Virus record (IMG/VR): IMGVR_UViG_2778261105_000002
Location: 1 to 6,838 of that record
Strand: one strand, 5' to 3'
Source: a virus
Lineage: Duplodnaviria > Heunggongvirae > Uroviricota > Caudoviricetes
DNA: 6,838 bases
Shown here: one piece after another, positions 132 through 6,838 of the stretch
How the letters are laid out: every line of letters begins with the position of its first letter
How positions within the stretch are numbered: position 1 is the first letter of the stretch
Notes under the pieces: model-generated
Told to the model about the DNA's origin: nothing
Seen by the model: the letters and a program-made list of their open reading frames with translations, nothing else
Database searches by the model: none
Translations under genes and position numbers: made by a program

Positions 132-155
132 AAAAAAGGGGCGCAGACGCGCCCC
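132..155 (-). terminator. Rho-independent terminator closing the porin cassette
   Basis: On the minus strand: GGGGCGC-GUCU-GCGCCCC (perfect 7-bp all-GC stem at 155..138, 4-nt loop) followed directly by UUUUUU (137..132). On the plus strand the hairpin is preceded, not followed, by the A-run, so it is unidirectional for minus-strand transcripts. Confidence 0.75.
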
Positions 156-158
156 GAA

Positions 159-328
159 CAATAAAAGTCCAATTTAAAATAAAACCAATAAAGGTAATAA
201 CAGAAAGTTAAATCAGCACATGCCAGATGGCAATTGCTGATCGCAGTGACCAATGAAAACTGTGTTTTCATTGATACAGGCCGCCTGTAAGGGCAGACGG
301 CCCGTATTTATTAACTTATCAGCAATAA
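159..328 (-). ncRNA. Structured 3' region of the porin transcript; candidate 3'-UTR-derived small RNA (IpeX-like hypothesis)
   Basis: About 170 nt between the porin stop (331..329) and the terminator carry three consecutive hairpins: a 9-bp inverted repeat ACTTATCAG/CTGATAAGT (314..322 / 335..343) with the stop codon in its loop; a 9-bp stem at 279..302 with a 6-nt loop (one C/A mismatch on plus, a G-U wobble in minus-strand RNA); and a perfect 10-bp inverted repeat CAATGAAAAC-TGT-GTTTTCATTG (251..273). No convincing ORF is present. The sRNA assignment is inference only. Confidence 0.25.
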
Positions 329-1483: not shown

Positions 1484-1681
1484 GATTTAATCCTTATTTA
1501 AACTGAACTATTCATGCATTCAGATGTCATGAACAAAAATTAAAATATTTTAATACAAATTCTTAGTTCAATTTATATTATGTAACAAAATGTAAATGCA
1601 AGATCGATTTCGCACTTTCTGACAAGACAGATTAAAAATAATTAACAACTAAACACTAAAGAATGATTTATAGGATAATTC
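1484..1681 (-). promoter_or_regulatory. AT-rich upstream and 5'-UTR region of the porin gene (own promoter likely)
   Basis: A 198-bp AT-rich spacer starts immediately after the M stop codon (1684..1682). A sigma70-like candidate on the minus strand is TTGCAT - 17 nt - ATATAA (approx 1602..1574), but its spacer overlaps the OmpR-like box, so the exact promoter is unresolved. A perfect 14-bp palindrome TTAAAATATTTTAA lies at 1540..1553. Confidence 0.5.
1577..1596 (-). promoter_or_regulatory. OmpR-box-like motif
   Basis: Minus-strand TTTACATTTTGTTACATAAT, with direct half-sites TTTACA and GTTACA 10 bp apart. It closely resembles the E. coli OmpR sites as I recall them (ompC C1 TTTACATTTTGAAACATCTA; ompF F1 TTTACTTTTGGTTACATATT). 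It lies 94-113 nt upstream of the porin ATG. Confidence 0.4.
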
Positions 1682-2023
1682 TCATCTAACTACCTGCTCT
1701 ATCGTGCAACTGAAATCACTGTACCGGGCGTTATCCGTAATACTCCACTCCCGGCACACCACCCTGACCGTCCGGTTATGTTTCGGGGGCTTCCACAAAA
1801 AAGCCCGGTAACCACCATGCCATGACAGAAACGCGGACAGTGCCTCCCGCTCAGCATCCGTTGTCACCCGAAAAACCACCTGAAAGGTCTTCAGTTGCGC
1901 ATTCAGTCCTGCCGGACGACGCTGCTGATAACCGTCGCCAAACTTCACCGTCATCACCGACGGTTTCTCCGTCACCTGCATCCCTTCCCGGGGACACCAG
2001 TGAAGAGTCTTAATCTCATCCAC
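1682..2023 (-). CDS. M: Minor tail protein M (lambda gpM-like), 113 aa, GTG start
   Basis: Translation ...IKTLHWCPREGMQVTEKPSVMTVKFGDGYQQRRPAGLNAQLKTFQV...CTIEQVVR aligns along its whole length with lambda gpM as I remember it (MKTFRWKVKPGMDVASVPSVRKVRFGDGYSQRAPAGLNANLKTY...FEQVVN). The start is GTG at 2023..2021 with GGAGGA 7 nt upstream, overlapping the H stop codon. Confidence 0.9.
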   Translation of the reverse strand: MDEIKTLHWCPREGMQVTEKPSVMTVKFGDGYQQRRPAGLNAQLKTFQVVFRVTTDAEREALSAFLSWHGGYRAFLWKPPKHNRTVRVVCREWSITDNARYSDFSCTIEQVVR

Positions 2024-5999: not shown

Positions 6000-6716
6000 T
6001 TATCCGGCGGCTGCGCTCACTGTCACGGTGCATTCAACAGACGTCACACTCTGTGCTTTCTCTGCCGAATCGGTCACCACGCAGGTATATTTCCCCGCAT
6101 CGGCGGACTGCGCACCTGGCTTACTGAAGGTGTCTGTCGTCTGCCCGTCAACCGGCTGACCATCCTTCTTCCAGGCGTATTTATACGGCGGCGTTCCCCC
6201 GTTGGCACTGACTGACATTGTCAGCAGCGCACCGGTATTCACGGTAAGTGTCTTATCCAGATTTTTCACAAACGCCAGCGGTACCACAAAGGACACCGGT
6301 TTGCCTTTCAGACGCAGTGAGAACGTTGCAGCCACCACGCCGTTGGTACCGGATGACCAGGTGTGCTGGCGCACTTCCGCCAGGAATTTAAAGCCCTTAC
6401 CGGACGGAAACAGCACCTTAAACGCATACAACGCGTCATTGTCATAGGCATCACGCAGGGCGTTCTGGGCCTGATTCAGATAAAAATTACCCGACATGGA
6501 AATCTCAGACGACGCCCCCAGACCGTTGATATTCTCCTGCTCTGTGGAGCAGAGCGTGGTCACATCAATATCCTGTTTCTGACCGGCGGTGAACTGGACT
6601 TCCTTGATGGTGCAGTCCAGGCGCAGATATTCCGCCTTATCCATAGTTTCAGCAGTCGCCGGGGCAGATGAAATCATCACCTGCGTCAGCTGTGAGCGTT
6701 CATACAAAGCAGACAT
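6000..6716 (-). CDS. V: Major tail (tube) protein V-like with a C-terminal Ig-like domain, about 238 aa
   Basis: First gene of the V-G-GT-H-M series on this strand. ATG at 6716..6714 (MSALYERSQ...) is preceded by AGGAGG with a 4-nt spacer. The C-terminal ~70 aa (...GGTPPYKYAWKKDGQPVDGQTTDTFSKPGAQSADAGKYTCVVTDSAEKAQSVTSVECTVTVS) looks like an Ig-like fold (W...Y.C pattern), as found on lambda gpV. The track's longer ORF to 6830 would read through the SD and an upstream hairpin. Confidence 0.8.
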   Translation of the reverse strand: MSALYERSQLTQVMISSAPATAETMDKAEYLRLDCTIKEVQFTAGQKQDIDVTTLCSTEQENINGLGASSEISMSGNFYLNQAQNALRDAYDNDALYAFKVLFPSGKGFKFLAEVRQHTWSSGTNGVVAATFSLRLKGKPVSFVVPLAFVKNLDKTLTVNTGALLTMSVSANGGTPPYKYAWKKDGQPVDGQTTDTFSKPGAQSADAGKYTCVVTDSAEKAQSVTSVECTVTVSAAAG

Positions 6717-6732
6717 TCTGCCTCCTGATAAT

Positions 6733-6753
6733 AAAAAACCCGCACGCGGCGGG
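6733..6753 (-). terminator. Terminator-like GC hairpin plus U6 immediately upstream of the V ribosome-binding site
   Basis: Minus-strand RNA CCCGC-CGCGU-GCGGG followed by UUUUUU (6738..6733), then AUUAUC-AGGAGG-CAGA-AUG. The stem is only 5 bp but all GC. Confidence 0.4.
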
Positions 6754-6838
6754 GTATGGGTGTAAGCGTAAACTGACCGCCGTATGTAGCCATCAGACGA
6801 GAATTGGTAACTTAGACGCCCATCTGACACAGACGGAC

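Follow-up and report, generated by a model that had tools for sequence, protein, structure and literature searches.

The OmpR boxes C1 of ompC and F1 of ompF are 20 bp long, with two 10-bp half-sites in direct repeat. Each is the most distal box in a contiguous set of three (-100 to -40) and lies 160–235 nt from the ATG; in addition, ompF has an F4-type site and ompC a divergent micF. Occupancy of the proximal box activates transcription, whereas C1 alone at the distal position does not (PMC3050692). A solitary, high-scoring OmpR box, which is also listed for CpxR (centre -49.5), is found 5–6 bp 5′ of the -35 element of csgD, an unrelated gene with other regulator sites around it. Among phage-borne general porins, nmpC of DLP12 and lc of phage PA-2 adjoin the Q/lysis region, and the annotation of nmpC names OmpR, IHF and MprA as its repressors and Crp as its activator (PMC11677980). 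OmpR is furthermore known to recruit horizontally acquired genes readily, with a modest genome-wide sequence specificity (PMC3945435).

Here we analysed a phage stretch of 6838 bp (the window), in which a porin gene of the NmpC/Lc clade lies between tail genes M and L and is preceded by a C1/F1-like box that, unlike C1 and F1, is single and promoter-proximal, beginning 113 nt from the ATG, and that has neither an F4-type site nor micF beside it. We propose, with a probability of about one half, that this box is a functional site for one dimer of an OmpR-family regulator, of which OmpR~P would be the expected one and CpxR~P could compete, 5′ of a sigma-70 promoter belonging to the porin itself. 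The features on which the analysis draws are collected in Table 1.

Table 1. Positions in the window of the porin cassette, its putative regulatory elements and its boundaries.
Feature	Position	Strand	Details
Intrinsic terminator	138..155	-	GGGGCGC-GTCT-GCGCCCC + T6; just 5′ of tail gene L (ATG 119)
Porin, 384 aa	329..1483	-	OmpC/OmpF/PhoE-family general porin, sister to NmpC/Lc/OmpD
Shine-Dalgarno AAGGA	1491..1495	-	invariant in all variants, 7 nt 5′ of ATG
nmpC-shared leader block	1505..1529	-	TGACATC-N10-AATAGTTC(A)
Predicted 5′-terminal hairpin	1510..1534	-	GUUCAUG-N11-CAUGAAU; RNAalifold consensus of 8 distinct sequences
Predicted transcription start, T1535 or G1534	1534..1535	-	from the -10 position and ompD/nmpC analogy; 5′ UTR ~51 nt
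Predicted -10, TATTTT	1542..1547	-	inside invariant block AATATTTT (1549-1542), the longest invariant spacer run
Predicted -35, TTGAAC	1566..1571	-	5 bp 3′ of the box; ATTGAA invariant in 5 lineages
OmpR-type box, 20 bp	1577..1596	-	two 10-bp direct half-sites, TTTACATTTT and GTTACATAAT; PWM score 12.98
CpxR motif GTAACAAAATGTAAA	1582..1596	+	GTAAA-N5-GTAAA, 9/10; reads GTAAC-N5-GTAAA
AAAGTG block, invariant	1613..1618	-	17 nt 5′ of the box; no CRP core within 3 mismatches
Tail gene M homologue	1682..2023	-	upstream boundary of the insertion

The porin cassette at the junction of tail genes M and L

The window belongs to a lambdoid prophage and represents its tail region, is 100% identical to sequences of E. 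coli N51 and 2013C-3181, and has the gene order major tail, G, T, tape measure, M, porin, L, K, I and J. The porin is 74% identical to the NmpC/Lc-type phage porins, with which it also shares a similar signal peptide, and 64.6% identical to K-12 OmpC; it clears the NCBIfam cut-off of the OmpC subfamily, the PhoE and OmpF scores being nearly equal, and carries the name 'porin OmpC' in RefSeq. In BP-4795 and a large number of Stx phages, matches are confined to the flanks (25% of the query, in two pieces), and therefore M and L are adjacent there, while the order M-porin-L recurs in further genomes. The GC content amounts to 25% in the spacer between M and the porin, 36–50% in the porin gene and 55–63% in the tail genes. 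Inserted between adjacent genes, deviant in GC content, and provided with a terminator of its own and a predicted promoter, the porin cassette is a phage moron in the sense of the published definition (PMC8065619).

Of 5426 complete E. coli genomes, ~94 contain the spacer, some copies being only 72–82% identical, and every intact genomic copy is situated between M and L; cassette lysogens thus account for ~1.7% of these genomes, and many of them are STEC. Further copies were retrieved from IMG/VR. A distant-mode comparison of the spacer with 50,697 deposited phage genomes gave no match, and literature searches by accession numbers and phrases found no report on a porin at the M/L junction. A chromosomal donor was sought and rejected, the best non-phage relatives being OmpD-type genes of only 66–68% identity that have weak OmpR-like sequences.

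The cassette alleles are 84–96% identical overall, and their main difference is an indel-rich segment at ~698–781 on the minus strand (porin residues ~235–262), presumably a surface loop, whose length varies by up to ~30 residues. The 3′ UTR of ~190 nt (138–328, minus strand) contains a GC hairpin directly after the stop codon, followed by the terminator; it is not ipeX-like, as no similarity to the region downstream of nmpC was found. In L103, a 3′ UTR that is 100% identical to that of the window is combined with an 88% identical porin and a promoter of the L003 type, and this mosaic indicates that cassettes recombine internally. Three prophage contigs from one source genome, L112, L116 and L117 (IMGVR_UViG_643348545_000009, _000013 and _000008), each carry an L003-type porin cassette. 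A decayed copy with an intact porin (L002, 3098–5520) is flanked by fragments of the tape-measure gene and of L, IS66 remnants and a Rop gene, and this cassette has outlived its prophage. Apart from the cassette, the major tail subunit ORF of the window (6000–6830, minus strand) was seen, by reading its translation, to end in an Ig-like-looking segment (…GKYTCVVTD…VECTVTV).

The OmpR-type box and its variation among cassette copies

An initial sequence-only reading had placed an OmpR-box-like motif, TTTACATTTTGTTACATAAT, on the minus strand at 1596..1577, 94–113 nt 5′ of the porin ATG (at 1483), and its sequence, position and distance all proved exact. The box was scored with an OmpR matrix made from the published counts of 24 sites footprinted in E. 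coli or Salmonella (PMC3050692, Additional file 3), which was reproduced exactly; scores are given in natural-log units with micF duplicates removed, and the cut-off used in that study is 7. When 1484..1681 was scanned, as that reading had suggested, the box came out with 12.98 as the top match in the window, compared with a median of 9.3 for the known sites, of which only csgD and ompF F1 score higher, and it still reached 11.8 after all ompC and ompF sites had been dropped from the matrix. On both strands of the whole window it is the best 20-mer, the next one (7.83) overlapping it on the opposite strand. When the 198-bp spacer, which is 77% AT, was shuffled 5000 times with its dinucleotides preserved, no shuffle reached the box score, and five did so with the leave-out matrix. 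The specificity of the matrix was estimated on 552 kb of enterobacterial DNA around porin genes, where 22 positions on the two strands scored at least 10, and 19 of these lie on the sense strand, 160–235 nt 5′ of a porin ATG, where the C1/F1 sites sit. With A4C5 and A14C15 in place, as in the ompF/ompC type, and a score like those of footprinted sites, the box is an OmpR-type motif beyond chance, and its sequence makes it very probable that a host OmpR-family regulator can bind it.

The likeness to known boxes that this reading had put forward holds against the real K-12 sequences: all of the first 11 positions agree with ompC C1 (TTTACATTTTGAAACATCTA; 15/20 overall), and 17 of 20 with ompF F1 (TTTACTTTTGGTTACATATT). 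Together with the first 11 positions, the box has the 6-nt 5′ flank CTTGCA in common with C1, giving a 17-nt identity, and the same flank is carried by the published C1 oligo (PMC2586830). In local alignments of the spacer with the upstream regions of ompC, ompF, nmpC and ompD, the C1 segment alone was significant (21/23; 0/500 shuffles). Three of the 22 OmpR matches of at least 10, in chromosomal loci (L013:6850, L019:6828 and L066:6385), do not lie 5′ of the query porin, and two of them are located ~3.8 kb 3′ of the ompD start.

On its other strand the box DNA reads as a CpxR motif, and GTAACAAAATGTAAA is the only GTAAA-N5-6-GTAAA site in the window (1 mismatch). A CpxR PWM from 41 published sites gave it a score of 10.5, the median of the known sites being 8.8, and ranked it as the top match in the window. 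The box might accordingly be mainly a CpxR site, through which CpxR~P would control the porin under envelope stress, most likely by repression, with OmpR irrelevant or secondary; the A16G change of the L095-type allele, which falls outside the 15-bp CpxR core, would suit this explanation as well. The published CpxR list, which includes the reverse complements of ompF F1, ompF F4 and the csgD OmpR site, likewise fits a CpxR role, and it indicates that promoters of this class as a rule have sites shared by OmpR and CpxR. A CpxR role is compatible with the OmpR explanation. The L003-type allele, the commonest in IMG/VR, has the half-site GAAAC, as in ompC C1, and scores 2.8 for CpxR but 10.8 for OmpR. 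Since this allele loses the CpxR fit and keeps the OmpR fit, OmpR is compatible with all lineages, and we consider a predominantly CpxR-controlled box quite unlikely.

The cassette copies from complete E. coli genomes and IMG/VR yielded 16 distinct upstream sequences of ~5 lineages, with a spacer divergence of up to ~28%. In 16/16 variants the box was the best OmpR match within the 240 bp scanned upstream and occupied the same position, with scores of 8.4–13.0, and the published cut-off was exceeded in all lineages. The first half-site TTTACAT and C15 are invariant, and the second half-site occurs as GTTACA, GTTACG, GAAACA, GTTGCA or CTTACA, of which GTTACA, GAAACA, GTTGCA and CTTACA are forms found among known OmpR sites. 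Across five lineage representatives, the longest invariant runs are AATATTTT (1549-1542), TTTACAT (1596-1590), AAAGTG (1618-1613) and ATTGAA (1572-1567), and we read AATATTTT, TTTACAT and ATTGAA as the putative -10, OmpR half-site and -35, respectively. In the L004 type, the AAAGTG region is extended to TGTGA-N6-TCTCT, a sequence similar to a CRP half-site.

The conservation of the box is nevertheless modest evidence, because 43% of the spacer columns are invariant in the five representatives, so that an invariant run of 7 nt is not rare; because a random-mutation test of score retention, in which the box of the window was mutated with the observed number of changes, gave P values of 0.07–0.95 and detected significant purifying selection in no lineage; and because the L095-type A16G, approximately the worst possible single substitution, leaves a box score of 8.8. 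Taken as sequences, the variants point weakly to selection on the box. Non-significant tests and a damaging change in one lineage would be expected if the box now had no regulator-specific role and were an ompC-type relic or a -35-like or UP-like TTTACA, the expression of the porin being set by H-NS silencing and late read-through. The 17-nt identity to C1 with its flank points to common descent more than to selection for function, the spacer is AT-rich, and such foreign DNA may simply be H-NS-silenced. By consensus, the best match in the spacer is TTTACA-15-TAAATT. However, the hexamers of this pair are 15 nt apart, and two lineages have lost the essential A2 of TAAATT, whereas the box remains above 7 in all lineages at a fixed distance of 5 bp from a conserved -35, and OmpR scores this high are almost confined to real porin promoters. 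A box devoid of a present regulator-specific role therefore seems unlikely to us, if less so than a box mainly for CpxR.

Promoter architecture and proposed regulation

All -35/-10 pairs in the spacer were listed and then ranked by their survival across lineages. TTGAAN-18-TATTTT was the sole candidate promoter retained in all of them (with 16-nt spacing in the L005 type), and its form in the window, TTGAAC-18-TATTTT, is weak, with 4/6 matches in each hexamer (8/12) and no call by a generic promoter scan. TTGAAC is the counterpart of TTGAAA in nmpC and of TTGAAC in Salmonella ompD, a gene of the same porin clade with a structured leader, its 5′ UTR being 69 nt long (PMC3333887). The starts of ompD and nmpC are both found ~36–37 nt after the TTGAA hexamer, and that of nmpC is a G (PMC11677980). 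From the conservation and the homology to nmpC and ompD, we infer that TTGAAC-18-TATTTT is the porin promoter and that transcription starts near G1534.

The sequence-only reading had preferred a different pair, TTGCAT-17-ATATAA, which would enclose the box between its hexamers, and had pointed out that this would imply repression. TTGCAT (1601-1596) and ATATAA (1578-1573) are both present in the window, but only the lineage of the window has the pair, and 3/5 lineages have lost it, their hexamers retaining 1–2/6 and 2–4/6 matches; in addition, an identical TTGCAT precedes ompC C1, ~100 bp 5′ of the expected ompC start position. A promoter of this kind is extremely improbable, and as it is not conserved, the worry about a box in the promoter spacer falls.

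Under the predicted promoter, the box would span ~-62 to -43 and end 5 bp before the -35. On the K-12 sequence, box and -35 are separated by 5 bp at ompF F3 (-60..-41), by 4 bp at ompC C3 and by 6 bp at csgD, and the window thus has a promoter-proximal box at the distance of 4–6 bp from a weak -35, the -35 being a predicted one. The site centre of -49.5 presupposes a csgD start at -148, which the measured geometry reproduced. A box of C1/F1 grade hence occupies the place of the weak, activation-competent F3/C3 boxes. By analogy with the geometry of F3, C3 and csgD, our best guess is that OmpR activates the porin promoter.

Repression by a bound OmpR, as annotated for nmpC (PMC11677980), deserves consideration since that promoter belongs to the nearest relative. 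The nmpC OmpR site, GAAACCAAAACTTACATCTT, however, has a different sequence and a score of 7.6, and it overlaps the -35 by 2 bp, which is 7 bp closer than the box of the window and on another helix face, whereas the box has the geometry of activating sites. Nor does the spacer offer a CRP core site that could supply activation instead: unlike nmpC, which has Crp sites, and ompD, which has a CRP-like GATCT-N-GATCACA further upstream, the region 1484-1681 contains no TGTGA-N6-TCACA within 3 mismatches, its best candidate being TGCGA-N6-TCTTG with 4 mismatches. Repression through this box is thus very unlikely. At ompD, the OmpR-like 20-mer at the -35 is weak (score 3–7, gap 1). Altogether, the upstream region looks, from its sequence, like an NmpC-type core promoter that carries an ompC-C1-like box.

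The companions of the box in ompC and ompF were also looked for. The in-phase 20-mers at -40, -20, +20 and +40 from the box scored -6.9, -10.8, -1.4 and -0.2, compared with 4.3–8.3 for weak known sites, and with every in-phase neighbour below 2.1, neither C2/C3-like tandem boxes nor an array of three boxes over ~-100 to -40 was found. No distal F4-type site was present, as no other minus-strand OmpR match in the whole window exceeded 4, and no Rfam match to a micF-like divergent RNA was obtained in 1-2100 at E<=1, a match to NsiR9 being due to chance. With a single box and without an F4-type site or micF, graded or reciprocal osmoregulation of the ompC/ompF style is therefore not inferable. 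The suggestion that the acquired porin kept or brought along host-responsive regulation accordingly stands in part: a top-grade OmpR-type site is found, and all diverged copies have it at one and the same position, together with a promoter region and terminator of the cassette's own, whereas the 'tandem form' and the 'osmoregulation' were overstated for one box with such neighbours.

According to the activation proposed here, OmpR~P bound at ~-62 to -43 in a lysogen would recruit RNA polymerase as at F3, C3 and the single csgD site, production of the porin would not depend on late transcription of the phage, and read-through into tail gene L would be stopped by the terminator at 155–138. Because the site is of C1/F1 grade and solitary, expression would be expected to depend on OmpR and to need no more than low OmpR~P to be switched on, instead of being graded or reciprocal. 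With a functional site, lysogens would produce one more general porin at all times of OmpR activity and not just upon phage induction, and the cassette would illustrate compactly how a moron can be tied to a host two-component system via one high-affinity site; the additional porin could change how permeable the outer membrane is, how beta-lactams enter and which receptors other phages find. An OmpR site is already known for nmpC, as is the control of acquired genes by OmpR (PMC3945435), and the gain is therefore incremental. A broader and tentative proposal, possible but on the whole doubtful, is that the cassettes form a group of lambdoid morons at the M/L junction that combine a porin diversifying in one loop with an NmpC-type core promoter stripped of CRP control and a single proximal box of ompC-C1 grade, signalled by OmpR/CpxR. 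If true, lysogeny would add a major porin under OmpR/CpxR envelope signalling, and the permeability, antibiotic uptake and phage-receptor surface of STEC could change.

Predicted leader and translation signals of the porin mRNA

The first base of the predicted 5′-terminal hairpin coincides with the predicted transcription start, and in the L005 type all 7 pairs of the hairpin are kept via wobble or compensatory changes. The leader block shared with nmpC has the form TGACATC-N10-AATAGTTCA in K-12, with the same spacing and at nearly the same distance from the TTGAA -35 (41 versus 42 nt). The 5′ UTR is accordingly closer to nmpC than to ompC, whose C1 is resembled by the box and its 5′ flank alone. 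Within the coding region, AGCAGTGGC is a perfect 9-nt complement to nt 1-9 of RybB, and CAGTGGC complements nt 1-7 (RybB from K-12); these stretches are located at 1443-1451 and 1464-1470 on the minus strand, in porin codons 5–7 and 11–14. As nmpC is a reported RybB target (PMC3333887), these matches suggest that sigma-E/RybB may also repress the porin mRNA.
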